Source: a virus (lineage: Duplodnaviria; Caudoviricetes). Taken from it: DNA of 64,000 nucleotides. Each line of letters opens with the position of its first letter. The first letter of the stretch is position 1. Below the pieces are notes generated by a model. The model was given only the letters and a program-made list of their open reading frames with translations, had not been told where the DNA came from and did not search any database. The DNA lies in the IMG/VR virus record IMGVR_UViG_3300021364_000005; one strand, given 5' to 3'. Made by a program: the position numbers and the translations under genes. Shown here piece after piece: positions 29,855 through 45,154 of the stretch.

Positions 29855-29883
29855 ATTATTACATATATGTGTTAATTTGTCAA
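29855..29883 (-). promoter_or_regulatory. sigma70-type promoter for rnh
   Basis: TTGACA-17nt-AATAAT (TAATAA at 16 nt). Confidence 0.6.
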
Positions 29884-30270
29884 GCAAAATTCTTCCTCAA
29901 TATACCGTTTTAGTTCATGATCCCCGACATTTTCAGGTAGTTCTTTTTTATAAAATAGTCTATAACTGTCTGATCCGTACTTACCAATTCCGTATAGTTC
30001 TGTTGCATCATTTCCGTCCCAGTCACCGAACTGTTCACTCATGCGATATAGTCTTTCTGCTCTTATCCTACGCATACCAAGTGGTGCAATTACTTCTTCA
30101 ATCTCTTTGCGTGTTGCATAAAGCAATGCTTCATGGGTTGGCCAGCGTTTGAAAAATTTAGGAAGTACAGATTTAACTTGTTTTCTTCCAGTTTGGTTGA
30201 GACATATGACACCTACCATATGCTGCCATATGTTATCTACCTGTTGTTGTACCATTAAATCGTCACGCAT
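29872..30270 (-). CDS. MBD4-like HhH-GPD DNA glycosylase
   Basis: ICLNQT, PLGM, ELYGIGKYGSDSYRLF, VGDHEL; GAGG SD before ATG 30270. Confidence 0.82.
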   Translation of the reverse strand: MRDDLMVQQQVDNIWQHMVGVICLNQTGRKQVKSVLPKFFKRWPTHEALLYATRKEIEEVIAPLGMRRIRAERLYRMSEQFGDWDGNDATELYGIGKYGSDSYRLFYKKELPENVGDHELKRYIEEEFCLTN

Positions 30271-30277
30271 GGTTTCC

Positions 30278-30859
30278 TCATACATAGCTAGTGTTGAAAC
30301 TTATTACTTGTCTTTTCTCAGTGCTTGTTTCCATTTTAGTCTCATGTTCTAACCAGCTAGGAAAGATGTAAAGCGTTAAAGGTTTTGGTTTGACATAGTG
30401 ATAGTATGTATTATGTTCATTCTCGCCATCGAATAAGTCAAACATCCTGTAAGGTTTAAGAGGGCTATGAAACATCAGTTCGGCACTATCATCTGCGCCT
30501 TGCACATACAATGCACCACTGCATACACTTCCTTCGTGTCTATGCGGCATCACTTTTGCACCTTTAGATGTTATGTTAGTCCAACAATTTGTAATGCCTA
30601 ATTTGCGCAAGTTTAATAGTTTCTCGTATTCTGCAATACAAGTAAACAAAATATCACCTAACCAATCAAAACCTTCTGCATCAGTTAATAAATTTTGATA
30701 CACAGCATAAGTGCTTACACCATCTCTTATTAAGTCGTGTGTCTCGCAAACTGATTCTAAATTTTTTAACTGTTCTATTTGGCTTTCATTTATAACTTCT
30801 TCTAAATTATATTCTAATATGCTAGTCGGAAAGACGCTATGTAAGCCAATTTGTATCAT
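30278..30859 (-). CDS. Putative 2OG-Fe(II) oxygenase (TIGR02466-like)
   Basis: CWTN, PHRH..CSGALYV, IFPSWLEH, ISFN. Confidence 0.8.
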   Translation of the reverse strand: MIQIGLHSVFPTSILEYNLEEVINESQIEQLKNLESVCETHDLIRDGVSTYAVYQNLLTDAEGFDWLGDILFTCIAEYEKLLNLRKLGITNCWTNITSKGAKVMPHRHEGSVCSGALYVQGADDSAELMFHSPLKPYRMFDLFDGENEHNTYYHYVKPKPLTLYIFPSWLEHETKMETSTEKRQVISFNTSYV

Positions 30860-31257: not shown

Positions 31258-31412
31258 TATAGTCCTGCCTCCCTAGCACGTTTTTCTAAATCTACGTCTG
31301 CTTCTTTACGATTAACTGCATCGTATGAAGGATAACCTTTTTCAAATACAGGAGCTTCAAATGCTTGTTCATGCTTCTTTGCTTTCTCCACAGTCTTAGG
31401 TCCCCCATGCAT
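31257..31412 (-). CDS. Possible 51 aa hypothetical protein
   Basis: The 3' part of track ORF 31257..31814 fills the gap after queE; ATG at 31412. Confidence 0.4.
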   Translation of the reverse strand: MHGGPKTVEKAKKHEQAFEAPVFEKGYPSYDAVNRKEADVDLEKRAREAGL

Positions 31413-32289
31413 TTCCGAATAAGCTAATGTGGAGTCTTGGACTGAATCGCCATCCTCGCTCCATGCACGAGTTGGCCACTTCTGCCACGTTAAGATTATA
31501 CTCTTCCGAACGTCCGCCAAGCGGCATAAGATATACTGGACACTCGACGCCTGCATCACGATATTCTTGAACAGCACGACCAACTTCTTCAAAGTCGTCC
31601 ATACTAGCCACGACAAATTTAAAATACTGGCTACTGTTAGTAACACTGGCGTAATCACTAGCAACATCAGGCAAGATAGCATCACTCCAAGATTCTCCTG
31701 AAACGGAGAGTTTAGGCGAACAACTAAATGTTGTTTTGAATCTTGCATTGTCTGAAAGATATCGCTTGAAATCTTTGTGTAAAGGTTGTGTAGTGTTTGT
31801 TTCAAATGTAACATTTTTTAAGTCCCTCATTTTCGGATGTTCAAACAGCTCGACATACAGTCGTTGCCAAGCAAGTAATGGCTCACCGCCAGTAAGAATA
31901 AGATGAATGTCTTGTCCATTATCCATAGTCCATTTACCTTCTGGTAGTAAACTAATCAAATGATCAACAACTTCATCTACTTCTGCTAGTTTGTTAAAGT
32001 GTTTAAACTCTGGATAGATGCTTGCATATGTATCACAGCCTGTATGAATGATAGGCAAGTCCTCAAACTTTTCTGTAGTCTCGTGTACACCTGCATCGAG
32101 CAATGCTTTTACTTCTGCATTGTAACGCTGACCTTCTGCGTGCTGTTCCCAACGATCTTTTTTAGTATCAACACCAAAGTTCATACAACGAAAGTTACAA
32201 CCAAAGGTACGTAGGAACACACTAGGTACTCCTACGTATTTGCCTTCGCCTTGTACGCTATAGAACGCTTCACTATACCTCAGTTTCAT
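31396..32289 (-). CDS. queE: 7-carboxy-7-deazaguanine synthase QueE (radical SAM)
   Basis: EAFYSVQGEG, VFLRTFGCNFRC...GCDT, LTGGEPL, ETN, SPKLS, RLH; GGAGG SD. Confidence 0.88.
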   Translation of the reverse strand: MKLRYSEAFYSVQGEGKYVGVPSVFLRTFGCNFRCMNFGVDTKKDRWEQHAEGQRYNAEVKALLDAGVHETTEKFEDLPIIHTGCDTYASIYPEFKHFNKLAEVDEVVDHLISLLPEGKWTMDNGQDIHLILTGGEPLLAWQRLYVELFEHPKMRDLKNVTFETNTTQPLHKDFKRYLSDNARFKTTFSCSPKLSVSGESWSDAILPDVASDYASVTNSSQYFKFVVASMDDFEEVGRAVQEYRDAGVECPVYLMPLGGRSEEYNLNVAEVANSCMERGWRFSPRLHISLFGNAWGT

Positions 32290-32557
32290 CAACGTCCTCC
32301 ATAATATTTTCTAAATCATCAAACGATGCTACATATTTTTTATTTGATCGATCATCTAGTACTTCTACTAATCGACTAGCAGTATCACGTGCAACCAATG
32401 CACCTGTGCTTGTGTAATTACCGTATTTTGCAACAGGTAAGTCTGCCATGCTATACATACCACCTGGACGACCAAATTGATCTAGTGGAATATCTTTTAC
32501 TGTAAATGTACAGTTGTAAGATTTACCTGGGGTAATATTTTCAATTGAAATACTCAT
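32273..32557 (-). CDS. Hypothetical protein
   Basis: TAATG coupling with folE. Confidence 0.65.
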   Translation of the reverse strand: MSISIENITPGKSYNCTFTVKDIPLDQFGRPGGMYSMADLPVAKYGNYTSTGALVARDTASRLVEVLDDRSNKKYVASFDDLENIMEDVDETEV

Positions 32558-33240
32558 TAGCAAGCAAACTCCTGTTGCAGTTTAATATTGTCAAAGAACT
32601 CTTTCTTTGTACCCGGATCGTCTTTAAATGCACCTTTTAGTACAGTTGTTTGTGTTAAACTACTATGTGCCATAATGCCACGGTTCTCACAACAACCATG
32701 TGTTGCTTGAATATACACACCTAAGTGTTCTGCATTAGTTGCTAGTTGAATTTGCTTTGCAATTTCGTTTGCAAGTTCTTCTTGCAGTGTTCCACGTCTA
32801 GCACACCACTGTGCAATACGTGTATACTTACTAAGTCCAATAAGTTTCTCAGCGGCAATAATACCAATGTATGCAGTACCTACTACTGGCTGATGATGAT
32901 GTGAACACATACTTTTTAGTTCTGATCGAACTACAAGCATACCTTCGTATCGTTCTTCTGAATCATTTGGAAATGCTGTTGCACCCGGCTTTGGATCGTA
33001 ACGTCCTGCCATAATTTCATTAAAGTACATTTTAGCAAGGCGTCTTGCTGTACCTTCTGAATTTGGGTCATTAAGACGATCAATTACAAGTGCATCTAGC
33101 ACACTTTCGAATGCTCTAGTAGCATCGTTAATTAATTCTTCTTTATCACCACGTTGTAAGACTTGTGAAATATTATCGCCAGCCCAGTAACGGATGCCAG
33201 CGTCTTCTAGTTTTTGTTTAATTTGTCTTGCTTTGCTCAA
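32557..33240 (-). CDS. folE: GTP cyclohydrolase I
   Basis: SMCSHH, GLSKYTRIA, LQEEL, HGCCENRG; TTG start with GGAG SD. Confidence 0.93.
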   Translation of the reverse strand: MSKARQIKQKLEDAGIRYWAGDNISQVLQRGDKEELINDATRAFESVLDALVIDRLNDPNSEGTARRLAKMYFNEIMAGRYDPKPGATAFPNDSEERYEGMLVVRSELKSMCSHHHQPVVGTAYIGIIAAEKLIGLSKYTRIAQWCARRGTLQEELANEIAKQIQLATNAEHLGVYIQATHGCCENRGIMAHSSLTQTTVLKGAFKDDPGTKKEFFDNIKLQQEFAC

Positions 33241-33280
33241 TTTGTTTCTCCGAGTTATAGACGAGGATGTCTATTGTTTT

Positions 33281-33309
33281 AATATACAGTATATTTAGGT
33301 TTTTGTCAA
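33281..33309 (-). promoter_or_regulatory. sigma70-type promoter for folE-queE
   Basis: TTGACA-17nt-TATATT with TG extension. Confidence 0.8.
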
Positions 33310-33312
33310 CCA

Positions 33313-33558
33313 TTAACCGTTCAATTGTTCTTTTTCATCCAACATATCATCAAGAAAGTATCTTTCAACAATGTCCATTTGATCTTGATATGTTGCCATT
33401 TCTGCAAGTTCTTTTTCAATTGCGTCCATGATGTCCGGGTGTTCGCCAACACCTACAGCATTTTCTAAATATACTTCAATGTTGATTTTATGTTTTTGAA
33501 TATGTGCATCTGCATGAGCCATTATAGTCTCTAGCATTTTTTGTTTCATAGTTTTCAT
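33313..33558 (-). CDS. Small conserved T4-like phage protein
   Basis: VGVGEHPDI motif; AAGGA SD. Confidence 0.7.
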   Translation of the reverse strand: MKTMKQKMLETIMAHADAHIQKHKINIEVYLENAVGVGEHPDIMDAIEKELAEMATYQDQMDIVERYFLDDMLDEKEQLNG

Positions 33559-33571
33559 GTTAATTTTCCTT

Positions 33572-34141
33572 TTAATAACTTCCCACGTTTTCCCATGGGT
33601 ACACTAACCATACATCTTTTTCTTCTTTATTAACTTCATCGCAGTAATAGTTAACCTTGTGCGAAAAGTTACTAGACAAGTTATCCGTTAGTACGGCAAA
33701 ACGGACATTATTACCGAATACATTATTCCAAACATCATCGCCTGGTAAACAACTAGATTTCCAATCCTTTATAAGCCAATTAAATGTTGCACCTGTATCG
33801 TTGATGTCATCTACAATAAGTATGTTCTTTTTCTTTTGAGGATTATGGGTAGATGTTGGATAAAGATCATCTCTATCTCTAACTTCTTCGTAACCGTATG
33901 CATCTTCGGCCATCCAACAATTACTTTCTAAATGACTATCATCGTCACGTAAAGCTATTTTAAGTGCTTCGCAACGGATACCAGTCATATTACTTATAAT
34001 AGTTGCAGGCACATTGCCTCCTCTGGTTATTCCTATGATGTAATCCGGGCGCCAATTATCAGCATACATTTGATTAACTATGCTGACACACATATTTTCT
34101 ACATCAGTCCATGAATAAATCTTCTTAGAAGGGGATGTCAT
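33572..34141 (-). CDS. Type I phosphoribosyltransferase
   Basis: IGITRGG; ILIVDDINDTGAT PRPP loop; WLVYPWE. Confidence 0.88.
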   Translation of the reverse strand: MTSPSKKIYSWTDVENMCVSIVNQMYADNWRPDYIIGITRGGNVPATIISNMTGIRCEALKIALRDDDSHLESNCWMAEDAYGYEEVRDRDDLYPTSTHNPQKKKNILIVDDINDTGATFNWLIKDWKSSCLPGDDVWNNVFGNNVRFAVLTDNLSSNFSHKVNYYCDEVNKEEKDVWLVYPWENVGSY

Positions 34142-34541
34142 CGTCTAAACCTCGTTCTTTTAATTTGCCTTTGTAATCCTGTTCGCACATTTTATATATT
34201 GTTTTGAAATTATCATATGCTTTTTTAAGTGCAGGATATTCATCACACATATTATCTATTTTCTCTAATTCTGGCATCACATCCTTAAACTCAGTTGCAG
34301 TAATTGTAATGTTATTTAGGTCAAAAGTTACATCACTTGAGTCAACTATGCCATCTAAACTTATTGTATACATACCGTCAACGTTTGATGTTGCTAAAGT
34401 ATCAGTAGTATTAATAGTAATAGTGCTTGGACTTACTGTATCATATGCAACACTATAAGTCATATCGTCATAAGGAGAAAAGGAACTTGCCTCTTCTAGG
34501 GTGATATAAACTTGATCATCGTCGTCTTTCTTTTTAGACAT
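34125..34541 (-). CDS. Hypothetical protein
   Basis: Start at ATG 34541, overlapping the glycosyltransferase end. Confidence 0.65.
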   Translation of the reverse strand: MSKKKDDDDQVYITLEEASSFSPYDDMTYSVAYDTVSPSTITINTTDTLATSNVDGMYTISLDGIVDSSDVTFDLNNITITATEFKDVMPELEKIDNMCDEYPALKKAYDNFKTIYKMCEQDYKGKLKERGLDDDIPF

Positions 34542-35580
34542 CTGATATGGTCCTATATAATGCGTTTCCACTAAAATAATCTTTGTTCAGTTTCATACGC
34601 TGCTTTTCTAAACTTACAATATAATCATCGTAATTTTCCATATAGTCAACAATCTTAGCAGTAACATTGCCTCTATATTTTCTATATGAAGAATAATCTT
34701 CAGTCCAATCACTTGGATATTTGAATTCAGGAAGTGCCATTTCGCTATAGCTTAGTCTATCTGGAACCATTGGAATAGCATCTACAAGAGCACCTTCATA
34801 CCAACTAATACCAAGTGTTTCTTGTAAGTTAGCACTAAACACAAGTTTTGCTTCACCTAGCAAATTATGGTATTCATTCTTTGTAAGTGTTTGTTCTTGA
34901 CAAACTATAAACTCGTATTGTGGTAATTGTGCTTTAAGATCATGGAATATATCTACTTGTTTTTCCGGAGCAATACGATGCGGGAAAAGAATAAGATCAC
35001 GCTTTTCCATACCTTTGTAACTATCTAAACTGTTCTTTAGATACTCCATAGGCCAGCCTACACGATGAGTTTTATCATCATCTATATCTAAACTTTCAGC
35101 AAATAGATCTATATGGAAGTCACTTGCAAAGAAGTTATCGTCATAGCATTCATACATTGACTGCTCGGCATGACGTACCCAAGGCTTGTCGCCAATTAAT
35201 CTTCCGAGGAAGTCTTGGGGATCATAACTTCCGGCGTGCCATAAGCCCCCAATACGGACATCCACGCCGAGTAATTCTGCCATGTAGCGTAGTTGTATAA
35301 CAGTAGGGTTCCAAGCATCTGTGTATAAAAAGTAGTCATCGGTTTTAACTGTTCCATTACAAAACATTTCTCCAATTTGTTCTAGTTGTTTTGATTTATA
35401 AACATTAGTTCCGCCAAAATTGAGAAAAGCCCCAGGCGTAGTAGCCTGCGGCGTTTCCCCTCCGCTGATAACAACGACATCTTCATTTGTAGATCGTTCG
35501 AGCTGTTGTGGAAGGTGATCCTTCCATTGCTTAGTATAGCGTGTGTCAACTGCTTCTATATCTACAATATAAATAGTCAT
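34534..35580 (-). CDS. GT-B (GT4-like) glycosyltransferase
   Basis: FPHRIAPEKQ; ANLQETLGISWYEG (E-x7-E); PDRLSYSEM. Confidence 0.82.
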   Translation of the reverse strand: MTIYIVDIEAVDTRYTKQWKDHLPQQLERSTNEDVVVISGGETPQATTPGAFLNFGGTNVYKSKQLEQIGEMFCNGTVKTDDYFLYTDAWNPTVIQLRYMAELLGVDVRIGGLWHAGSYDPQDFLGRLIGDKPWVRHAEQSMYECYDDNFFASDFHIDLFAESLDIDDDKTHRVGWPMEYLKNSLDSYKGMEKRDLILFPHRIAPEKQVDIFHDLKAQLPQYEFIVCQEQTLTKNEYHNLLGEAKLVFSANLQETLGISWYEGALVDAIPMVPDRLSYSEMALPEFKYPSDWTEDYSSYRKYRGNVTAKIVDYMENYDDYIVSLEKQRMKLNKDYFSGNALYRTISDV

Positions 35581-35792
35581 TAATTACTCCGTTGTTGAAA
35601 CTTTCGTTGTGCGTGACGGTTCTTTGCACGAATCCAATTTAGGTGCTTCTGATATGCTTCCCATATAGGAGCTCCTTTTTTATACAAATCGGCTTCGTCA
35701 AACTTCTTGCCTTCAAAGCGGCAATAGTCACGAAACTTATCCAAATCGTTAAACACCTTAGTGTACGCTTCACGATTGAATTTAATAGACAT
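35580..35792 (-). CDS. Hypothetical protein
   Basis: Coupled ORF with GAGGA SD. Confidence 0.65.
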   Translation of the reverse strand: MSIKFNREAYTKVFNDLDKFRDYCRFEGKKFDEADLYKKGAPIWEAYQKHLNWIRAKNRHAQRKFQQRSN

Positions 35793-35807
35793 TTTCTCAT
35801 ATTCCTC

Positions 35808-36260
35808 TTATGATTGCTTAGGATAAATGTTGTGGCAGCCATTTTCTCCATCTTCGGAGACTTCGATAACAACAAAGCGGCCTGGATACTTTGTGTTAAT
35901 TTCTTCATATAGGTCATCTGCAATCATCTCGCAAGACTTATAATCAAGATTTAGTACATCATCTTTATAAAGATTTTCTAACCAGCGTTTGAACTGGATA
36001 AATTCAATTTCTCTGTCACTGTGTTTGACACTAATTGTAACTTTAAAATGGAACATATGGCGATGAGGATAACCTAAAAAGCTAACATCATACTCATCGC
36101 CTGTTGCTAGAGCAGGATCTTCTAGTGCCGCAGGATATTTATGAATTCCTTCCTTTTGAAAAGTGACCCAAATACTGCGGTTTACTTTCGATTCCATATA
36201 AATTTTCTTATCTTCTTCTCGCATCATGCGTAACATACCTTCATAATAACGTTCTTGCAT
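35808..36260 (-). CDS. QueD-like (6-pyruvoyl-tetrahydropterin synthase / T-fold) protein
   Basis: EGIH; PHRHMFH metal His motif; EIEFI; SCEMIA; context beside folE/queE. Confidence 0.68.
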   Translation of the reverse strand: MQERYYEGMLRMMREEDKKIYMESKVNRSIWVTFQKEGIHKYPAALEDPALATGDEYDVSFLGYPHRHMFHFKVTISVKHSDREIEFIQFKRWLENLYKDDVLNLDYKSCEMIADDLYEEINTKYPGRFVVIEVSEDGENGCHNIYPKQS

Positions 36261-36267
36261 TGTTTAT

Positions 36268-36296
36268 AGTATACTTTCATAGTAAGATCTTGTCAA
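36268..36296 (-). promoter_or_regulatory. sigma70-type promoter, near-leaderless, for the QueD-like gene
   Basis: TTGACA-17nt-TATACT, ATG 7 nt downstream. Confidence 0.78.
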
Positions 36297-36810
36297 GTCC
36301 ATATTTGCTCCAATCTGTAAATTTTTCTCTATCTAACAGATCGTGCAAACTATGACACCAGACACCTGGGTTGGACGCCTTAAAGTCTTTATCATCAATT
36401 TTCAACATAGTGTTGTAATTCCACTGTTTCACGTAAGGCACCGGAACGCGAAGTTGTGGGATAAAATTGTCATATTCAATTAAGCCTGATTCTAAAAATG
36501 CTTCAGCAAGTGCAATAGGAATATCTAAACTACAAAGATAACCTTCATCAAGGAACTCTGTAATCATATCTTCCCATTCACTCCATTCGTCTGCATCTTC
36601 TGGAAAATTAGTACCAGGATTAAAACTATGATTTGCACCAAAGAACAAGTGCTGACACTTTTCTTTTGTAAAGAATGTCATAATTTCTTCAGTATCTTGA
36701 ATACCTTCAATAAAAAGTGTTTTCATTTTATATGCAGGAGTCTTTTCTACTTCGTAACCTGTAAAGTAGCAAACCTTTTCTACAATACCTTCTTCGTAAT
36801 CTCTTTTCAT
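36277..36810 (-). CDS. Hypothetical protein in the deazaguanine cluster
   Basis: 177 aa coupled ORF (FTGYEVEKTP, FFGANHSF). Confidence 0.72.
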   Translation of the reverse strand: MKRDYEEGIVEKVCYFTGYEVEKTPAYKMKTLFIEGIQDTEEIMTFFTKEKCQHLFFGANHSFNPGTNFPEDADEWSEWEDMITEFLDEGYLCSLDIPIALAEAFLESGLIEYDNFIPQLRVPVPYVKQWNYNTMLKIDDKDFKASNPGVWCHSLHDLLDREKFTDWSKYGLDKILL

Positions 36811-37010
36811 CCTAATGCCTTTAGTTCAGTTTCGAGTCTGTGTATTTCATCTTTGAGCCAAAGTTTTTGAGTTTTAAGCCTGTTTACTTTGTTATCATCT
36901 TCCCACTTATTATACAACTCTTTTACTTCGTCGTCAAGTGCTCTATGTTTCCGATATAATTCTTGTAAATGGGTTGCAATTTTATTGTGCTTCTCAGTAA
37001 AATTACTCAT
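36807..37010 (-). CDS. DUF465/YdcH-like coiled-coil protein
   Basis: HRALDDEV...RLKTQKLWLKDEI. Confidence 0.65.
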   Translation of the reverse strand: MSNFTEKHNKIATHLQELYRKHRALDDEVKELYNKWEDDNKVNRLKTQKLWLKDEIHRLETELKALG

Positions 37011-38461
37011 TCAAACAACTCCCCAAATTTAGTTTGTGCATTTACAGTTTTCTTACCAGTGGCACCCCGTGTGCCAATGATGCTCATCCAGAAGCGGCTG
37101 TATTCTTCTACAAGTGCTTCTGCTTTTTGCCGGTCATCCGTTGCGAATATTTCGTCCACAACATCTCTGAAAAATAGCCTGTCAAAACGCTCTTCCACAA
37201 GCATTGCCGGAAGTATTCCGTTGTCGTATTGTCTATTTGCTTCTTGTACTGCATTAATGTGCATCCATACGTTATGCCCCATCATGATAGCATATGAAAA
37301 ACTATCCCATGAGGTCTTGCCTTCTTTGCCTATTTTATTTAGATCACCTGGACCATATATACAAATATCTTTGGCTTGAAGTTCTGCTGTAATCGGACTA
37401 TCCATAAAGCTAGGATGTTTGCCTTCTCGAACGAATGCTTGCCCGAACTGAGTAGTATCTTGTGCAAGTGACTTATCATCTATACTAGGCACCATTCGAT
37501 ATACCCATTTAGTGCGATCTTGTGTTTCAAGTTCACAATAAATCTGTCCATTAGCAGTTGCAAGGAATGGAGAAGCACAATCAAACGTAATAGTAAAGTT
37601 TTCATTGTGATATTTGCGTACTGCTCTTTGGATATCTGTTAATAATGTAGCCCATTCGAGCTTTGAAGTACCTAAGAAGTGCATTACATCATGTATGCCT
37701 TTCTCAAGCAATCCGTCAAATCGCAGTGCAACCAAACGCTTGAGTGCAAGATGAACATCACACATATTTTGTCCACCCATCGACCAACCGTTGAAATGAT
37801 CATTTGGATATTTCTTAGGATCACAATAATCCTTCATCTGGTTGTACCAGTCATCCGCATCGGCGTGATTTTCACCTTGGAGAACATTAAGGAACTTACA
37901 AGCACCTGTTCGATGTTTCATCCAATAATCATTGTTAATACGTGTTGCTTTTACTGCTTCTGCATATGTACTAATGCCTGTTGCTTTTGCACCTTCCGGA
38001 GAACGTGCAACCCAGGCTGGAATATCAAGTATCATTCCATAGTCCATATATGCGTCCATCCACTTCAAAACGCCATCACGTTTCTTTTGTGCCTTTGGAC
38101 AATTTGGATCTTTCCAGTCACCTTCCCAAACACCCTTACCAATTTGGAAGCCACCTGAGTCACCAAGTAGCCAAGTGTTTTGTCTATCTCTATTACGCAC
38201 CATGTCTTCTTTAGGAGCAAACTTATTGACATCTAAGTCAGCGTGTCCGGCACTATACAAACTCCATTTGTAAGTAAACTGTCCTTCCTGTGCATTTAGA
38301 TAATTTAAACTTTCAACTCCGTGTGTAAGGTTAGAAGGTATTCTGGACTTATCCACATATTCTTCATGACGTTGCTTACCTACATAGGTAGCATAAAAGC
38401 CACTTAGTGCGGGCAAAAAACGTGCATAATCATTTTGTGTTGCGGTTAAATCTTTATTCAT
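37007..38461 (-). CDS. dpdA: tRNA-guanine transglycosylase-like DNA deazapurine transglycosylase (DpdA-like)
   Basis: LGDSGGFQ, MILDIP, VLQG, HFLG, FDCASP, GHNVW TGT-fold motifs; linked to folE/queE. Confidence 0.75.
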   Translation of the reverse strand: MNKDLTATQNDYARFLPALSGFYATYVGKQRHEEYVDKSRIPSNLTHGVESLNYLNAQEGQFTYKWSLYSAGHADLDVNKFAPKEDMVRNRDRQNTWLLGDSGGFQIGKGVWEGDWKDPNCPKAQKKRDGVLKWMDAYMDYGMILDIPAWVARSPEGAKATGISTYAEAVKATRINNDYWMKHRTGACKFLNVLQGENHADADDWYNQMKDYCDPKKYPNDHFNGWSMGGQNMCDVHLALKRLVALRFDGLLEKGIHDVMHFLGTSKLEWATLLTDIQRAVRKYHNENFTITFDCASPFLATANGQIYCELETQDRTKWVYRMVPSIDDKSLAQDTTQFGQAFVREGKHPSFMDSPITAELQAKDICIYGPGDLNKIGKEGKTSWDSFSYAIMMGHNVWMHINAVQEANRQYDNGILPAMLVEERFDRLFFRDVVDEIFATDDRQKAEALVEEYSRFWMSIIGTRGATGKKTVNAQTKFGELFE

Positions 38462-38658
38462 TAATCTTTCACGTTTAAATTGCTTGGGCTATATTGTTCA
38501 CCATTATAGCCACTTCCAGATCCATCTACACCTGAGTTGCAAGCAAATACAACTAAGCATAGAAAGAAAGCACTCCACAGTGTAGCTCGTTTACTCCAAA
38601 GGATGAATCCATCCATTGCTTCTTCGGCTTGTTTCTGTGCTTGCTCTGCTGGTGTCAT
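38461..38658 (-). CDS. Small membrane protein
   Basis: One hydrophobic segment; TAATG coupling on both sides. Confidence 0.55.
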   Translation of the reverse strand: MTPAEQAQKQAEEAMDGFILWSKRATLWSAFFLCLVVFACNSGVDGSGSGYNGEQYSPSNLNVKD

Positions 38659-39386
38659 TACTTACTCTGTGCTGGCAGGATATAGTCATACTTGGCCATA
38701 CCGCTGTCTACTGAAATCATCATTGCACCTTGATCTGAGATACTCATTGTTGCATCACCATCTAAGTTTAAAATACTTTGAACTTGTGCTACTGGCCAAC
38801 TCCATGTATGTGCAAGTGTTCCTTCAATACCATGTTGGAAAACAAACTCACCTGCGTGTGTACTTGCATCACCAAAGCTAAACACTAGATTTCCGTCTTT
38901 AGTACTAACATTAAATGTTGGTTCTTCTGAGTGTGCAGCACTCATTAGCTTCATACGTGCAATACTTGCTACACTTGGACTAAAAGTAATCTGCCATTGT
39001 GCGCCTTTAAACTTTACAGTTTTAAGTTTTTCTTCAATAATTGCTTTGTTCATAAAGCGATAATCATTTTGAAAGTCGCCTGCTGCGTTTTCAAAGTGAA
39101 TGTGTGTTGGAACAACCTCTCCATTACGTTCTGCTGTTACAACTTCAATTTTTGCATCCTTTTGATATTCCGGATTTTTCAAATGCAAGCTAAGTTTGTC
39201 TAAATTTGGCATACCAAATGTGTCAACAAACTCTGATACAGGCGAGTGTGTTTCTGCACTTAGGATAACACTTCGATCGTCTGCCATTGAATCAATTAAA
39301 GTGCCTTCGTCGTTCTGCACTTTTACAATGCTTAGGAAGCCTAATGCATGGGTGTGTGCAACAATGTCTTGTAAGATATCTTTCAT
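38658..39386 (-). CDS. Probable DNA polymerase sliding clamp (gp45-like)
   Basis: 242 aa with a two-fold repeated alpha/beta pattern, C-terminal YILPA, own sigma70 promoter, near polB. Confidence 0.6.
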   Translation of the reverse strand: MKDILQDIVAHTHALGFLSIVKVQNDEGTLIDSMADDRSVILSAETHSPVSEFVDTFGMPNLDKLSLHLKNPEYQKDAKIEVVTAERNGEVVPTHIHFENAAGDFQNDYRFMNKAIIEEKLKTVKFKGAQWQITFSPSVASIARMKLMSAAHSEEPTFNVSTKDGNLVFSFGDASTHAGEFVFQHGIEGTLAHTWSWPVAQVQSILNLDGDATMSISDQGAMMISVDSGMAKYDYILPAQSK

Positions 39387-40132
39387 ACTGTTTCTCCATT
39401 CTTAAATTCTATTATATTGCCTAATTTGTTGTTTGTCAAGAGTTTTTCTACTGAGTATTTAGGTTTAAAGCCTAAACTTTTTATTTTATCCATATTGGCG
39501 CAAGTCCAACTCCGTTCATTCGGGGTATTTAGACGAATTGGCAAGTCAGGTGCAAAGTCACGGATTCTAAATGGATGGCCTGTGCCTATGTCTATTTCGC
39601 CTGTTAGTTTACTATTCATACAAAGTTCTATTGCATCACATAAATCTTCTATATGTATAAAGTCTCTGTAATGATTAGTTACATAATCTAGTTCATTGTC
39701 TATAAGTTTTTGCAAAAACATACCTTTTCTAGGAGCATATGAGAAAACTGTATGAAATCTCATGCATAATGTATTAACATAACAAGCTGCTGCTTCTTCG
39801 ACAATGTATTTGCTTGCAGCGTAAGGATTTAAATGTGGTTCGTAAATAGAACTAGAACTTGCAATTAACATACGTGTTTCTGGATAACGTTCTAATAGTC
39901 TTTTTGTGACCTCTACGTTATTACGCCAGTAGCCTGCAGGATCGTCCATACTTTCACGCACACCGCTTTTACCAGCAAGATGTATTATTAGGTCAAAGTT
40001 TTCACGTAAAGGAATATCTAATAGATCCTGACCGTCTATTAAGTCAAAGCCTACGACACTATGGTGTCGTGTGAGCCGTTTAAGCAAGTGACTTCCTATA
40101 AATCCTCTATGACCCGTTAGACATATATGCAT
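39383..40132 (-). CDS. NAD-dependent epimerase/dehydratase
   Basis: TGHRGFIGS, HLAG, ASSSSIY, YAASK. Confidence 0.9.
   Translation of the reverse strand: MHICLTGHRGFIGSHLLKRLTRHHSVVGFDLIDGQDLLDIPLRENFDLIIHLAGKSGVRESMDDPAGYWRNNVEVTKRLLERYPETRMLIASSSSIYEPHLNPYAASKYIVEEAAACYVNTLCMRFHTVFSYAPRKGMFLQKLIDNELDYVTNHYRDFIHIEDLCDAIELCMNSKLTGEIDIGTGHPFRIRDFAPDLPIRLNTPNERSWTCANMDKIKSLGFKPKYSVEKLLTNNKLGNIIEFKNGETV
39411..39439 (-). promoter_or_regulatory. sigma70-type promoter for the clamp-dpdA operon
   Basis: TTGACA-17nt-TATAAT (perfect consensus). Confidence 0.85.
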
Positions 40133-40814
40133 TTAATTTACTCCAAGTGTCTTGCCAACCATTGACACTATAATTCATACCATTTTTATTTGCTTGAGCT
40201 AATGGAAAATCATTACCATCTTCATCCATTCTATCACCAAAAAACAAGATAGTATCGTTTTGGCTAAAATCTCGCATTATTTGGCTTTTATCTGCTCCTA
40301 CAGGAAAAATATCTATTCCTGTTTCTCCGCCTACCACAGCTTCTATATCTGGAAACTTTTGTTTAAACATTTTTGCTATAGTAACTCGTTCTTCTGTTCT
40401 TTCGTCATGCTGAACATACAATTTGCGCTCACCAAGAGTTGCGTTTCTTCCTACAACACTAAAATTACACATACCAGGCCTGTCTTCTATGTGTAATCCT
40501 GTACGTAGAGGAAACTTACTTAGTGCTAATTCTTCACGCAGCCACGCTTCTGCCTCTTCTGGTATACTCCATGTATTTGTAAAAACATTATTATTTTGCT
40601 CCCATACATCATTACCGGAACAGTTGTAAACCTTAACTGCTAAGTTGTATATTGTTGCGCCTACCTGTTCTATAGTTTTGTCTCTATCTGATCCAGTCAC
40701 AAGGTACACAGCATTATGGGTTGCAAATTGTTCAAACCAAGCTGCAAATTCTTTATCCATTTTTCCACGGCTTGGGGTAAGTGTGCCGTCTACATCAAAT
40801 ATAAATTTAGACAT
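40107..40814 (-). CDS. HAD-type (eukaryote-like) phosphomannomutase
   Basis: FDVDGTLT, VTGSD, NFSVVGRNA..ER, GGETGID, FFGDR...GND. Confidence 0.85.
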   Translation of the reverse strand: MSKFIFDVDGTLTPSRGKMDKEFAAWFEQFATHNAVYLVTGSDRDKTIEQVGATIYNLAVKVYNCSGNDVWEQNNNVFTNTWSIPEEAEAWLREELALSKFPLRTGLHIEDRPGMCNFSVVGRNATLGERKLYVQHDERTEERVTIAKMFKQKFPDIEAVVGGETGIDIFPVGADKSQIMRDFSQNDTILFFGDRMDEDGNDFPLAQANKNGMNYSVNGWQDTWSKLNAYMSNGS

Positions 40815-41226
40815 TGTTTTGCCTTTCTGCTACCCGCTTTCGCAAATCACTGGACGAGAAGCGGTGATCTCTTTTGTTAAAGTATAGCTGGATACCCCGC
40901 TTCTTGCAAATATCCTTGCCCGTAAAATCCTTTTCACGATACTCTTCTCCTAATATTCTAACATCAATTTGGTACATTGTCAAGATATCATTTAGGTCTT
41001 CTTCAGTGCCGTAAGGAATAATTTCATCTACGTACCCTACTGCTTTAAGTTGTGTATACCTTTCTACAATAGTTTGTATAGGAGAATTTTTTTCTGATCT
41101 ATCTATGCTTGGATCAACCTGCAATCCACATATTAGATAGTCGCATTGTTCTTTTGCTTCACGTAACATTTGTACGTGACCTGCGTGTAATAAATCAAAT
41201 GTTGAACAAGTAAATCCTACTTTCAT
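40807..41226 (-). CDS. Cytidylyltransferase (TagD-like)
   Basis: FDLLHAGH (HxGH); RDHRFSSSDL. Confidence 0.88.
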   Translation of the reverse strand: MKVGFTCSTFDLLHAGHVQMLREAKEQCDYLICGLQVDPSIDRSEKNSPIQTIVERYTQLKAVGYVDEIIPYGTEEDLNDILTMYQIDVRILGEEYREKDFTGKDICKKRGIQLYFNKRDHRFSSSDLRKRVAERQNNV

Positions 41227-41939
41227 GATACAAATGCCTTTTCTTGTACAAAAGTTCCTGCTTGCTTTTTGTTACCTTCATTCCAGCCCCAGTCATTCAA
41301 CATATCTTTAACATCATTATTAAAAGGCATACTACCACATATCATAACTTTATCCTTTTCAGGTGTAGCACCAGTTAGTATTACGCCGGCACTCATTGCT
41401 GTTGTTATACGTTTATTTAGGCCCTGCCATTCTCTGTCTTGTGTAACAATGGGTGTGTAATCGATAGGAAGTTCTTGTAAGAAATCATTATATGCAAGCA
41501 ATTCCGGCATACTTCGCACACTCCAAACAACATGAATATTATCAAAACTATCAAAAGTTTCCGGATCTCTTAGTAAACTGATAAATGGAGCGATTCCAGT
41601 ACCAGTTGCTAACATCCATAAGTCTCCTTTTAATTCTAAATTTGCTAAAATTAAAGTACCTGTTGCTTTAGAACCTACCTCTAATTGGTCTCCAACTTTT
41701 ATGTGTTGTAACTTACTTGTTAATGGGCCGTCTTGCACCTTAATGCTATAAAACTCTAAGTAGTCATCGTATGGTCCGCTTGTAATGCTGTATGCTCTGC
41801 GTATGTCATCATCAGGAAATCCTATCATTACAAATTCTCCTGCTGTAAATCTATATGATTTAGGACGATTACATTGTATTTTAAATAACCTATCAGTGTA
41901 GTGTTCAACACTTGTCACTGTAAGAGTTTCATAGCTCAT
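41223..41939 (-). CDS. fpr: Ferredoxin-NADP+ reductase
   Basis: RAYSI, GPLTSKL, ATGTGIAPF, MICGS, EKAFV. Confidence 0.9.
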   Translation of the reverse strand: MSYETLTVTSVEHYTDRLFKIQCNRPKSYRFTAGEFVMIGFPDDDIRRAYSITSGPYDDYLEFYSIKVQDGPLTSKLQHIKVGDQLEVGSKATGTLILANLELKGDLWMLATGTGIAPFISLLRDPETFDSFDNIHVVWSVRSMPELLAYNDFLQELPIDYTPIVTQDREWQGLNKRITTAMSAGVILTGATPEKDKVMICGSMPFNNDVKDMLNDWGWNEGNKKQAGTFVQEKAFVS

Positions 41940-42202
41940 TTATCTTCCTCTGGTAGTTTTATTACATTATTTTCATTAGCAAGCATATTTTCCTTAATGT
42001 CATATACTTGCTCGCTTTTAATCATATTAATAATTGTATTTGTCAAACTTACTTCTTGGCGTAAGTATCCAATCTTACGTTGCAATTCTTCTAGCTCTTT
42101 TAGATAAAATTCTAATTCTTGTTCCTTACGTAACTTCTGTTCAATAAAGTCAGTAATTAGAATTAGTTTTTGTTCTTCGCTCATTGCACTAGCGTACTCC
42201 AT
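41936..42202 (-). CDS. Coiled-coil hypothetical protein
   Basis: In-strand tiling ORF. Confidence 0.6.
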   Translation of the reverse strand: MEYASAMSEEQKLILITDFIEQKLRKEQELEFYLKELEELQRKIGYLRQEVSLTNTIINMIKSEQVYDIKENMLANENNVIKLPEEDK

Positions 42203-42459
42203 TTACGAAGTTTTTCACGTTTGACGTTAGCTCTATCTTCCAAGTCAATCCATTTGCAAACATTATGTTGCACCATAAGTTCTAGCATACAATAAACGTC
42301 ACCAAGTTCTTCGATTAGCTTTTGCTCTTGATCGTATTCAATTTCGTTTACAGTGTTGTATTTCCGCATAATTTTACTACAACGTTGTGTTAGTTCACCA
42401 CATTCTTCCATAGTAATACACATAAGTTGTTGTAAATCATTGATAGGGCTGTCTTCCAT
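42181..42459 (-). CDS. MazG-like nucleotide pyrophosphohydrolase
   Basis: EECGEL ... EELGDV; GGAG SD before ATG 42459. Confidence 0.78.
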   Translation of the reverse strand: MEDSPINDLQQLMCITMEECGELTQRCSKIMRKYNTVNEIEYDQEQKLIEELGDVYCMLELMVQHNVCKWIDLEDRANVKREKLRKWSTLVQ

Positions 42460-42460
42460 T

Positions 42461-45154
42461 TTAATCTCCAAAGTCAAATAAACTTGTAAATGTGTTAGAT
42501 TGTTTTGTGCTATCGATATCATAGTTTAGCACACCAATTAAGTTATCAATTTTATTATCAATAATAGTTGCTTCCATAGCATCGCCATCAAATGGCAATT
42601 CTTTGAACCAATCTGGCAAACGCAATTCATCTGTTGGATATGCAACACTTGTATACCCTAATGGATTCTGCTTGAGTTTGCACACAATAACTTTCATACC
42701 ATCTACAATCTCTTGCGAATACTTGTCACCATTCATACGCTTCAGTGTGTTCCAGTTAATGCTTGCTCTAACGTGCCCTGGCATATTTGCCTTGCCTTGC
42801 TTTTCTTCAAGACGCTGATAGTGCCCAATTTTGTTAGCACGTTTAGGAGCACCTTTTTCCCAACCCGGTCTATTTTTAAAATCACGCCTAAAGTCAGTAA
42901 TACGTTCTAGTATTTCTTTTTCGCCTTTTTCTTGTAGTACCATCATCAGCACTTCGCTTAGAAACTCTTGCATATACACAGGTGTGTCTGATCTACGCAA
43001 GTCTAAGCCCATTGCTTTTACTTTGCCTGGCTTGCCATCTGTGTCTGAACGGAAGCCTTCAACATCATATACCAATGCTGCATAACGTTTCTTTGTAATG
43101 TACAAGCCGCTTTCAGCAACAATCTCTCTACCTGCTGCAATAACGTCTGATCGGCTCTTTGGACAGTGAAATGCTTTTTGCATAAAGTCTTGGAATGTGC
43201 TATTTGCCTCTTCTGCGACTTGATCATATAGAGTAATTACATTGTCTTTACTCCATGGAATAGATCCGTTGTCAATTTGTTGTTTTAATACAGGATATGC
43301 ACTAAAATACACAGAGTCTGTATCACCATATATTACGCTTTCACCTACATGATCATAGGATCCTGTAATAACTTTGTTAACTTCTGCTGACATATGCTTT
43401 ACAATAGTACGGCCTGATAATGTAGTACTTTGTCCAATACGTTTATCAAAAAAGCGACAGCCAGGGTTAAGAATGGCACCATAAAGACTGTTAAGGTTAA
43501 TTTTCTTAACCAACTGACGTTTGTCCCAAAAAGCGATTTCTGCTTCATTTCCTGCATCCTTTGCTTTCTTAAGCATTTTCTGTAGATCTTTTCTTTCCGC
43601 ATACCACCTCTTTAGAATTCCAGGAATAACACCTTCAAATTCTGTTGTAAAAATTGTGCCATTTGAACTTAGCATCCAAGGCATATTACTGTCAAATATT
43701 AGTTTGTAAATTTCTGCTCCACTTAGTACGTCTGAACGACCGTCTTCCCAGTCAATAGTTAGAGCAATGTCTTTGCGTTGGTCCATAACTGCTTCATATT
43801 CTTCTGTACTGAAGCGTCCTTCCCATGAACCTGCAAATGACTTTTTCTTAAGCGTCATATCTTCATGAACACGAGCTTCTGACATCTCAGGACGTATTTG
43901 TCCTACAATAGTTTCTGGAGCCATATTCAATGCACGAATCACACTTGGATACAGACTGTTCAAGTCCATTGAACCAATCCATTTGTGAACACCTTTTTTA
44001 GGAAATGCAACATAAGCACCAGCGGCTGCTGTATTCTCATCATCACGCTTTGGACGATTAGGAACTTGTAATCCTCTATCATGTGCTTCATTAATAATTG
44101 CTTGTTCTGTAACAGCAACAGCACCCATAGTTGTTTGTAGCAAAACAGTATTTGCGTGTGCCAGCTCGTTTGAAAGATCAATAAATCTTAGTTTTTTGTC
44201 CAGCTTGTCTAGTAGTGCAACGTCTTGTCTATTATATTCGATAAATGTTTCAAAGTCGTTGTTGTATAACTGATCAAGTGTTCCTTCATATACTGTTTTA
44301 CGTTCACCAACTTCAAGTTCGCCAATAGCATCAAGACGATATGTGTGTCTTTCTTCATATGTGTATTTGCGATATAATTCTAAACTGTCTAAATGCACTC
44401 TGCCCACAAAGTCATAAGTTTCACTTGTTTTTCCAAACTTTTCGTATTCACGTTTTTTAGGCAGTTGTCCCCATAAGCAAAAACGTCTTGTGTCATCTGT
44501 ACTTAAAACACGTTTAATTCTGTTAACAGTATACGGAACATCATAACCTTCACTATTCCAGCCACTAAAGATATCTGCATCCTCTAGCAAATCAAGGAAT
44601 GTAAGAAGCATTTGTCTCTCACCATTTCCTTCTTTGTCGTTTGGATATAAAATAACATCATCGCCCCAGCGATCTTTACACATTTTTTGTGCTTCTTCAA
44701 AAGGTAATCCCTTTGGCGGAACTGCAAGTGTAATAAGTGCATCGAGCCATTGTAAATGTACAGTGATAGCTGTAATTGGCATAAACGGATCTTCAACTGG
44801 AGCAAATCCTCGCTCTGGATCAAAGTCGGTCTCGATATCCCAAAACGCAACATTTAATTTAGGTGCGTCTTGATTAAGATAATTTTCACTTAAACATTGA
44901 AATATTGGATTAATATCGCTTTCGAATAAGTCTTTGCCTTTGTTTATTGCAATTTCTTTACGAAAGTCTTTTGTATTTTTGCAAACAATACGTGTTAGAT
45001 TGTCGCCATATACACTTTTGTATTTGCCACGTTCGTCTTTATAATAAAACGTGTATTTTGCTTGGTATTCTCTAAAATCTCTTTTACCATCTTTGCGTTC
45101 AACACATCTAATAATGTCTTGGTCGCGATCAAAGAAAGCATCTACGTAACTCAT
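42461..45154 (-). CDS. polB: Family B DNA polymerase (gp43-like)
   Basis: Exonuclease DIETD, NSEGYD, YNRQD; polymerase DLNSLYPS, KINLNSLYG, YGDTDS; no intein. Confidence 0.96.
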   Translation of the reverse strand: MSYVDAFFDRDQDIIRCVERKDGKRDFREYQAKYTFYYKDERGKYKSVYGDNLTRIVCKNTKDFRKEIAINKGKDLFESDINPIFQCLSENYLNQDAPKLNVAFWDIETDFDPERGFAPVEDPFMPITAITVHLQWLDALITLAVPPKGLPFEEAQKMCKDRWGDDVILYPNDKEGNGERQMLLTFLDLLEDADIFSGWNSEGYDVPYTVNRIKRVLSTDDTRRFCLWGQLPKKREYEKFGKTSETYDFVGRVHLDSLELYRKYTYEERHTYRLDAIGELEVGERKTVYEGTLDQLYNNDFETFIEYNRQDVALLDKLDKKLRFIDLSNELAHANTVLLQTTMGAVAVTEQAIINEAHDRGLQVPNRPKRDDENTAAAGAYVAFPKKGVHKWIGSMDLNSLYPSVIRALNMAPETIVGQIRPEMSEARVHEDMTLKKKSFAGSWEGRFSTEEYEAVMDQRKDIALTIDWEDGRSDVLSGAEIYKLIFDSNMPWMLSSNGTIFTTEFEGVIPGILKRWYAERKDLQKMLKKAKDAGNEAEIAFWDKRQLVKKINLNSLYGAILNPGCRFFDKRIGQSTTLSGRTIVKHMSAEVNKVITGSYDHVGESVIYGDTDSVYFSAYPVLKQQIDNGSIPWSKDNVITLYDQVAEEANSTFQDFMQKAFHCPKSRSDVIAAGREIVAESGLYITKKRYAALVYDVEGFRSDTDGKPGKVKAMGLDLRRSDTPVYMQEFLSEVLMMVLQEKGEKEILERITDFRRDFKNRPGWEKGAPKRANKIGHYQRLEEKQGKANMPGHVRASINWNTLKRMNGDKYSQEIVDGMKVIVCKLKQNPLGYTSVAYPTDELRLPDWFKELPFDGDAMEATIIDNKIDNLIGVLNYDIDSTKQSNTFTSLFDFGD

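Follow-up and report, generated by a model that had tools for sequence, protein, structure and literature searches.

A probable DpdL-type, QueC-independent 7-deazaguanine DNA-modification module with a linked GT4-type glycosyltransferase in marine phages

The conversion of GTP to 7-carboxy-7-deazaguanine (CDG) by FolE, QueD and QueE is well established. Eight 7-deazaguanine derivatives had been described in viral DNA by 2023, none of them glycosylated (PMC10516641). Cellulophaga phage phiST, which harbors FolE, QueD, QueE, DpdL, DpdA3 and a MazG-like enzyme, makes plain 2'-deoxy-7-deazaguanosine (dDG), the only product so far demonstrated for a phage with DpdL (PMC10516641). DpdL is a paralogue of QueD defined by the signature LxxxHRHxF, and the decarboxylation of CDG toward dDG ascribed to it in phiST is only a proposal of the literature: heterologous tests of DpdL failed, and dpdL plus dpdA of Acidovorax phage ACP17 yielded no dDG in Escherichia coli, perhaps, in the authors' view, for want of a further enzyme (PMC10516641). 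Iyer et al. 2021 noted a system for making and incorporating deazaguanine in Pseudomonas jumbo phage PA5oct (PMC7824862). PA5oct DNA resists restriction at several G-containing sites in a GA/GG pattern and is attacked by END nucleases, enzymes responsive to hypermodified G; the 2025 preprint did not identify the base (PMC12191111). Considered here is a related gene cluster that includes a glycosyltransferase (GT), found in a 64,000-nt stretch of IMGVR_UViG_3300021364_000005 (Caudoviricetes). This whole stretch is called the window, and gene coordinates below are window positions.

Like phiST, the window displays a QueC-free set with FolE, QueE, the DpdL signature and a transglycosylase of the tRNA-guanine transglycosylase (TGT) superfamily, located beside replication genes with a MazG-like gene nearby. 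In contrast, phiST has neither the GT, nor the phosphoribosyltransferase (PRTase), nor the 177-aa protein encountered here; its QueD lies within the cluster while that of the window lies outside the 64 kb, and its DpdA3 (259 aa) is only remotely related to the 484-aa protein of the window. ACP17 and PA5oct both resemble the window in displaying an adjoining GT (40-45% identity), a DpdL (57-61%) and a DSGG-motif transglycosylase, all annotated as hypothetical; common to PA5oct and the window are moreover the PRTase, a small acidic protein, PolB and the clamp, arranged alike. The bacterial Dpd systems (DpdA, DpdB and DpdC plus the restriction genes DpdD-K; products dPreQ0, or 2'-deoxy-7-cyano-7-deazaguanine, and dADG, or 2'-deoxy-7-amido-7-deazaguanine) are similar in that a TGT-family enzyme inserts a 7-deazaguanine which a further enzyme tailors. 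They differ in their partners, since no DpdB/DpdC-type Pfam families were found among the most frequent neighbours here, where a GT4 enzyme accompanies DpdL or a YhhQ-type transporter. The idea of a GT-B enzyme placing a sugar on an already modified base is shared with glucosylated 5-hydroxymethylcytosine (5hmC) of T4 and with glycosylated queuosine in tRNA, of which the human mannosyl-queuosine enzyme was reported to be GT4-like. Base, acceptor and enzyme families differ from these two cases, and the genes seen here provide no hydroxymethyl or cyclopentenediol acceptor.

The cluster very probably represents a DpdL-type, QueC-independent 7-deazaguanine DNA-modification module with a new DpdA subfamily. 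The QueC-free DpdL route is its known part, and the link with a GT appears to be undescribed. The whole gene order was kept in 80 marine IMG/VR loci (the marine relatives below), with median identities of 83% for the GT, 79% for DpdA, 83% for FolE and 78% for QueE, as against 35-50% for the small open reading frames (ORFs). The block is encoded entirely on the minus strand, neighbouring starts and stops overlapping or nearly abutting, and those named in an initial annotation of positions 31396-38461 were all present and co-oriented where it had placed them. The block and the clamp-like gene read as follows:

38658-39386, minus strand: clamp-like protein, 242 aa, homologous to the 'sliding clamp' of phage Phosso and to PA5oct EST35_0314; otherwise matching only a PHROG of unknown function
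38461-38658, minus strand: 65-aa ORF between the clamp-like and DpdA-like genes
37007-38461, minus strand: DpdA-like (TGT-superfamily) transglycosylase, 484 aa, with DSGGFQ, LDIP, HFLG and FDCASP motifs
36807-37010, minus strand: DUF465 coiled-coil protein, 67 aa (Pfam DUF465, 44 bits, E 1.8e-11)
36277-36810, minus strand: acidic 177-aa protein, recurrent in the module, without Pfam, PHROG or NCBIfam family
35808-36260, minus strand: DpdL (T-fold, QueD paralogue), 150 aa, with LGYPHRHMF motif (phrog_17812)
35580-35792, minus strand: basic 70-aa protein, pI 9.9, without family match, present in 80 of 80 marine relatives
34534-35580, minus strand: GT4-type (GT-B, retaining) glycosyltransferase, 348 aa, with confident model and conserved motifs
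34125-34571, minus strand: very acidic protein, 148 aa (138 aa from ATG), weakly matching PA5oct EST35_0319, which occupies the same position
33572-34141, minus strand: type-I purine PRTase (Gpt/Hpt-like), 189 aa (Pfam Pribosyltran, 36.4 bits)
33313-33558, minus strand: phrog_1811 protein, 81 aa (PHROG match; DNA similarity to pelagiphage and cyanophage genes)
32557-33240, minus strand: FolE, GTP cyclohydrolase I (Pfam, 132.5 bits; NCBIfam FolE)
32273-32563, minus strand: 96-aa ORF without family match, present in 8 of 80 marine relatives
31396-32292, minus strand: QueE-like radical S-adenosylmethionine (SAM) enzyme, CDG synthase (phrog_2076, E 1.9e-50)

The 150-aa protein, initially read as QueD-like, was reassigned to DpdL. 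Its LGYPHRHMF motif fits the DpdL signature where QueD displays CxxxHGH, it lacks the catalytic Cys of 6-pyruvoyltetrahydropterin synthase (PTPS) and QueD, and tblastn uncovered 57% identity to ACP17 DpdL (E 8e-36) and 31% to phiST DpdL (E 2e-8); it gave no match to Pfam PTPS. The same motif was encountered in two metagenomic loci, L091 and L093, and DpdL co-occurred with FolE, QueE and DpdA in genomes devoid of QueC. As DpdL gives the published QueC-free route of the phiST type, ending in dDG, the missing QueC is already explained, and the pathway need not stop at CDG as had been suggested.

Sequence queries agreed with the reported lack of QueC, QueF and Gat-QueC in the window: queries with QueD (three) and with QueC (one) gave no match there apart from one PP-loop fragment. 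This fragment, an 18-bit match (cut-off 22) to the N-terminal PP-loop of QueC, belongs to a 317-aa PP-loop ATPase (14342-15295, plus strand), which was rejected as a hidden QueC: the match was below threshold and confined to the PP-loop, no PDB QueC was matched, and the gene was not found flanking the clusters of the 80 marine relatives. A search for queC elsewhere, conducted on related genomes, found none above the Pfam cut-off in the complete PA5oct and Phosso genomes or in three marine relatives of 200-275 kb, where one weak fragment scored 15 bits. Relatives encode QueD (Pfam PTPS) at a distance of ~55-60 kb from the cluster: PA5oct has two copies, one of them with CxxxHGH, and Phosso and one marine relative also have the gene, the latter ~60 kb away. 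FolE, QueD and QueE are thus all available in the lineage; QueD for the window pathway has to be supplied by another part of the genome or by the host.

The DpdA-like protein was a more divergent case. Taken alone it found no match in Pfam, NCBIfam, PHROG or PDB sequences, which counts against the assignment, and a PDB sequence search with a seven-sequence profile gave nothing useful. The catalytic and substrate Asp motifs DSGG(F/Y)Q, LD(I/x)P and (F/M)D(C/S)xxP expected of the DpdA/TGT group were nevertheless present, and D101, S102, G103, G104, Q106, D146, P148, H261, G264 and D294 were invariant in 26 phage and bacterial homologues down to 20% identity. The homologue from L093 (26% identical) matched Pfam TGT (PF01702) with 30.9 bits (cut-off 26.3) and aligned with the archaeosine TGT 1IQ8 (E 4e-6), the alignment running through these motifs and a zinc site, CSCPVC. 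In hhalign comparisons the 484-aa protein matched a 424-aa DSGG-motif protein of ACP17 with 95.7% probability, and phiST DpdA3 (259 aa) weakly, with 59.5%; Atlas features scored 0.93 for TGT and 0.89 for DpdA. The zinc site CxCxxC...H was not found in the window protein, where one Cys (C367) and H396 remain in that region. On the strength of the conserved motifs, the TGT matches of the L093 homologue, the ACP17 alignment and the gene neighbourhood in Vibrio phage 2.275.O, the DpdA-like label was accepted, and the protein is regarded, from its sequence, as a divergent DpdA subfamily distinct from phiST DpdA3 and devoid of the classical zinc site. DNA would be its substrate, as suggested by gene context and by the motif-dependent modification of G in PA5oct.

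Vibrio phage 2.275.O also carries a homologue of this protein, adjoining queF, a YhhQ-type transporter, queC, a glutamine amidotransferase and folE. Alone among the relatives, it relies on QueC, QueF and Gat in place of DpdL and the GT, and the slot beside its DpdA-like gene is filled by gp469 (L003:10035-11147), a different protein of 370 aa. The order PolB, clamp, DpdA-like was common to the window, PA5oct and Vibrio 2.275.O. In Phosso, too, PolB and clamp are kept, but its DpdA-like gene is located ~170 kb away.

The co-occurrence of GT and dpdA, offered as a check in the initial annotation, held in distant phages, metagenomic lineages and bacterial loci. Among cultured phages, GT orthologues were 40-47% identical in Phosso, eleven PA5oct-like records and ACP17, and 25% identical in X1, BUDD and BCSR5; all of these also carry DpdL. 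Seventeen out of 22 cultured-phage records with the GT displayed DpdL, and 17 out of 29 with DpdL displayed the GT, the two being separated by a few kb wherever both positions were inspected. Gene orders varied: DpdA-GT-DpdL-QueE in ACP17, DpdA-GT-DpdL-small protein-SDR-PRTase-QueE in PA5oct (SDR, short-chain dehydrogenase/reductase) and GT-TGT-DpdL-QueE in X1, while the GT of Phosso adjoins only DpdL and not the DpdA-like gene. Metagenomic lineages with a GT of 28-33% identity were arranged as DpdL-GT-x-DpdA (L091) and DpdL-177-like-GT-TGT-FolE (L093).

A scan of prokaryotic assemblies, restricted to one genome per species, gave 43 loci (L100-L142), of which 32 displayed a DpdA-like gene and 25 a DpdL gene beside the GT; most loci lacking these neighbours were short contigs. 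Isolates of Magnetospirillum, Methylobacterium and Aurantimonas harbored a compact GT-DpdL-DpdA unit (in Magnetospirillum aberrantis, L121:6324-12823), and DpdA plus GT, with DpdL not detected, occurred in Pelagibacterium, Devosia, Shimia and Sulfitobacter. In Ochrobactrum sp. (L108:6055-9053) DpdA is followed by a Vut_1/YhhQ transporter and then by the GT. A Vut_1 gene was present in five out of 15 bacterial loci sampled, in which response-regulator genes gave eight matches and MASE1 histidine kinases five. The Magnetospirillum unit is flanked by a CoiA-like nuclease and a HEPN protein, and other recurring neighbours of bacterial units were integrases, resolvases, AAA_15/AAA_21 ATPases and sometimes a PTPS with a radical SAM enzyme; phage structural families were absent from the frequent neighbours. 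These units look like a mobile modification(-restriction) island whose composition is unlike the known dpdA-K system. Four of the 43 loci (L100, L102, L103 and L105) are contigs titled as metagenome-assembled genomes of Neomarinimicrobiota, Legionellales, Methanobacteriota and Pacearchaeota. They carry PolB, clamp, DpdA, DpdL, GT (62-77% identical) and FolE in the order of the window, most of them with QueE, and are probably misbinned phage contigs.

Since adjacency of the GT survives both rearrangement and change of host, the GT very probably works in the pathway of the transglycosylase, and there is good confidence that it belongs to the module. Searches of protein clusters defined at 90% identity uncovered more than 7,700 related clusters each, mostly from marine metagenomes. 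The window phage is a member of an abundant, uncultured lineage of large marine phages, and the module is more widespread than could be seen from the window sequence by itself.

The GT-B fold given in the initial annotation was borne out by structural modelling, Foldseek and conserved motifs. An AlphaFold2 model built on a homologue alignment reached pLDDT 96.2 and pTM 0.93, and Foldseek searches of PDB and Swiss-Prot retrieved BshA, MshA, GlgM, archaeal glycogen synthase, PimB' and LmbT, the BshA, MshA, GlgM and PimB' matches having probability 1.00 and TM 0.6-0.7. The motif EX7E and an Arg/Lys pair, which bind the nucleoside diphosphate (NDP)-sugar donor, are hallmarks of retaining GT4 enzymes. 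Here, E254-x7-E262, R202 and K207 were invariant, or conserved to at least 90%, in 55 full-length homologues of 28-52% identity, and the enzyme is apparently catalytically competent, as judged from model and motifs. An exhaustive HMMER search retrieved 1192 representative clusters, of which 265 scored below 1e-30; weak Pfam matches were seen in more distant homologues, and a PDB sequence search with the GT returned nothing useful.

Three genes located between PolB and the clamp might provide the donor; they are listed here with two further genes of the same region:

39383-40132, minus strand: SDR epimerase/dehydratase (Pfam Epimerase; PHROG nucleotide-sugar epimerase)
40107-40814, minus strand: HAD-IIB phosphomannomutase (PMM)-like protein (Pfam PMM)
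40807-41226, minus strand: sugar-phosphate nucleotidyltransferase, 139 aa (Pfam CTP_transf_like; PHROG heptose-1-P adenylyltransferase)
41223-41939, minus strand: Fpr-like ferredoxin-NADP reductase (NCBIfam/Pfam)
42181-42522, minus strand: MazG-like NTP pyrophosphohydrolase (NCBIfam/Pfam; PHROG NTP pyrophosphohydrolase), adjoining PolB

The best NCBIfam match of the nucleotidyltransferase was rfaE domain II / TagD-like. Among the marine relatives the SDR was found in 52 out of 80 loci, the nucleotidyltransferase in 50 and the PMM in 40, again between PolB and the clamp where inspected; the reductase and the MazG-like gene were variable. SDR, PMM and nucleotidyltransferase would make the NDP-sugar donor of the GT from a sugar phosphate, the Fpr-like reductase may feed the radical SAM enzymes, and the MazG-like enzyme may control dGTP. 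On a marine contig of 275 kb, a QueD-like gene (CxxxHGY) directly adjoins a gene for a similar ferredoxin-NADP reductase (L090:777-2013), which hints at a role of the reductase in the deazaguanine pathway.

From these genes the following route can be proposed. FolE and QueE, together with a QueD encoded outside the cluster or by the host, would produce CDG from GTP. DpdL would replace QueC and turn CDG into a 7-deazaguanine-type base, which the DpdA-family enzyme would exchange for G in phage DNA after replication. The GT4 enzyme would then add the sugar of an NDP-sugar to the deazaguanine, either as free base or on DNA, and the Gpt-like PRTase would most simply recycle displaced guanine to GMP. 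DNA modified in this way would be protected from restriction, as with other 7-deazaguanines.

A glycosylated 7-deazaguanine is put forward tentatively as the final base, with slightly less than even confidence, on the basis of sequence comparison and modelling. It is favoured because the GT retains its catalytic residues and accompanies DpdA even in minimal bacterial units, because sugar-nucleotide genes lie between polymerase and clamp, and because PA5oct behaves as hypermodified. Since the GT stays with DpdA when a precursor importer replaces DpdL, the acceptor is probably a feature common to 7-deazaguanines or the DNA product rather than a C7 substituent. A somewhat bolder generalization, possible and held a little less firmly, is that a portable module composed of a DpdA-family enzyme, a GT4 enzyme and DpdL or a YhhQ-type importer installs sugar-bearing 7-deazaguanine in DNA across marine phages, PA5oct, ACP17, X1, Phosso and bacterial islands.

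Several observations pull the other way. Gene linkage shows a shared pathway and not a chemistry. No acceptor of the GT could be identified; a decarboxylated 7-deazaguanine offers no obvious hydroxyl, and GT4 enzymes normally make O-glycosides. The GT gave no match above threshold to Pfam (Glycos_transf_1, Glyco_trans_1_4) or NCBIfam. Its acidity (pI 4.7) is unusual for a DNA-binding enzyme, and its nearest structures mostly act on small acceptors, although this is only a hint. The sugar genes might instead be used to glycosylate the cell surface or the virion, a role that has been proposed in cyanophages (PMC7824862). DpdL also occurs without the GT, in the phiST group and, according to BLAST, in Bakedbeans, Ahp1, BUCT-ZZ01, D479 and RHph_I1_18, and Vibrio phage VP1 displays complete replacement by plain 7-deazaguanine. 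A 2-oxoglutarate/Fe(II)-dependent oxygenase (30278-30859) was considered as a maker of a hydroxyl acceptor and discarded, being present in only 8 out of 80 marine relatives at ~26% identity. A complex prediction for the DpdA-like protein and the GT scored 0.00 and is informative neither way.

In the main rival reading, the final base is plain dDG, as in phiST and VP1, with the GT engaged in a sugar-dependent step, acting as a helper of DpdL or DpdA, or using another acceptor. DpdL, FolE, QueE and DpdA without QueC constitute the published dDG gene set, no other product has been demonstrated for a DpdL phage, 7-deazaguanine has no obvious O-acceptor, and a MazG-like gene lies near the module as in phiST. 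Plain dDG is nonetheless rated less probable here. It leaves unexplained an apparently active GT4 enzyme that is tied to DpdA and DpdL across phages and in three-gene bacterial units; phiST reaches dDG without any GT homologue, so that the GT is dispensable for dDG itself; and PA5oct DNA is 'hypermodified' in the eyes of END nucleases.

The PRTase introduces another possibility. Its best NCBIfam match was xanthine PRTase, with IVDDINDTG as motif of the phosphoribosyl pyrophosphate loop, and it was found in 74 out of 80 marine relatives and, as EST35_0321, at the same position in PA5oct. In tubercidin and toyocamycin biosynthesis a PRTase acts on CDG or preQ0. The Gpt-like enzyme could make a 7-deazaguanine nucleotide that host or phage kinases and ribonucleotide reductase convert to a dNTP for incorporation by the polymerase, the MazG-like enzyme lowering dGTP and the DpdA-like protein having a secondary or proof-reading role. 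The conservation of the PRTase in the marine lineage and PA5oct, the adjacency of MazG and PolB and the complete replacement of G in phiST and VP1, which would be easier before replication, all speak for such a pre-replicative route. It is improbable all the same: the PRTase is missing from the modules of ACP17, X1, L091 and L093 and occurs in only 4 out of 43 bacterial loci, while DpdA is almost always there; the GA/GG motif dependence in PA5oct fits a DNA transglycosylase; guanine salvage explains the PRTase more simply; and the GT would be left without a role. As it is found again in PA5oct while ACP17, X1 and most bacterial units lack it, the PRTase is considered accessory.

The preference of the GT's structural neighbours (BshA, MshA, LmbT, GlgM) for small acceptors, together with its atypical acidity, also raises the question whether the cluster makes a small molecule rather than a DNA base. 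Biopterin glucosides are known from cyanobacteria, and N2-glycosylated 7-deazaguanines include huimycin and dapiramicin. FolE, a PTPS-like fold, SDR and a GT-B enzyme do resemble a gene set for pteridine glycosides, and a pteridine glycoside or glycosylated 7-deazapurine could in principle result from GT, T-fold protein, FolE and SDR. This reading is very improbable, because the catalytic Cys of PTPS/QueD is missing from the T-fold protein and because QueE and the TGT-family enzyme are constant partners. In addition, the phage modules sit among replication genes, the bacterial ones have a nuclease-like gene next to them and integrase/resolvase and AAA-ATPase genes around them, and PA5oct DNA is modified at G.

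Concerning novelty, sugar-bearing 7-deazaguanine in DNA was found in no full-text description, in line with the initial annotation; an earlier prediction of the GT link in Iyer et al. 2013 (NAR) or a 2024 MMBR review is possible. The main text of the 2023 DpdL paper does not mention glycosyltransferases (PMC10516641), and neither there nor in the 2025 PA5oct preprint (PMC12191111) was the GT tied to the pathway.

The remaining genes of the module were less uniform. QueE matched its PHROG over the full length, and NCBIfam models gave 35-47 bits with cut-offs of at least 200. Its Cys triad is split (~residues 32-88) into Cx3C, an invariant Phe at the usual place of the third Cys, ~49 inserted residues and CDT. 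This layout is the consensus of the QueEs from PA5oct, ACP17, phiST, Vibrio 2.275.O, X1 and Phosso, and C32, C36 and the TGG of TGGEP were invariant in seven phage QueEs. The DUF465 protein (66 out of 80 marine relatives; median identity 52%) and the 148-aa acidic protein (median 42%) were poorly conserved, and the 81-aa phrog_1811 protein is probably outside the pathway.

Homologues of the 177-aa protein were found between DpdL and GT in ACP17 (ASD50402) and L093. Its AlphaFold2 model had pLDDT 84; an Atlas feature search gave nothing, and Foldseek found nothing in PDB below E 0.09. In shape comparisons (VIA-align/Atlas) it matched generic partial barrels, including three QueE structures with Z 5.2-5.8 and Atlas QueE clusters with TM 0.58, while hhalign against a QueE alignment was negative and no Fe-S Cys motif was seen. 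Judging from the model, it may be a cluster-less, substrate-binding relative of QueE or just display a common fold.

Co-transcription of the block with the clamp gene, as initially assumed, is plausible: no convincing internal terminators were found, but near-consensus sigma-70-like sites occur. Perfect or 11/12 matches to TTGACA-17-TATAAT at 39439-39411, 36296-36268 and 33309-33281 (minus strand) are located a short way upstream of the genes for the clamp, DpdL and FolE, respectively, so that several early-type promoters, instead of a single transcript, may serve the block. The total of promoter-like sites was no higher than in shuffled sequence.

Downstream of the module, 29872-30285 encodes a 137-aa stand-alone HhH-GPD (endonuclease III/MutY-like) glycosylase domain, present in 20 out of 80 marine relatives. 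Phosso harbors an annotated glycosylase between DpdL and clamp, in which similarity to the HhH-GPD protein of the window was not detected. Positions 1-21773, on the opposite strand, contain at least four radical SAM enzymes, two fatty-acid desaturase-like proteins, a GNAT protein and the PP-loop ATPase that gives the only, spurious, QueC-like signal of the window. This island shows no link to deazaguanine genes.

Modification with 7-deazaguanines is a growing anti-restriction chemistry, in which the tie between GT and transglycosylase is consistent in many lineages and apparently unremarked. It offers a testable reason for the failed reconstitution with dpdL and dpdA of ACP17, whose GT lies between the two genes, and for the modified G of the therapeutic candidate phage PA5oct. 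As cultured phages carry the module, nucleoside mass spectrometry can decide. Since the family is abundant in marine metagenomes, the modification could affect cutting, sequencing and detection of marine viral DNA. The bacterial copies suggest a self/non-self system of new composition, and the units located beside nuclease-like genes may form a new kind of modification-restriction system.

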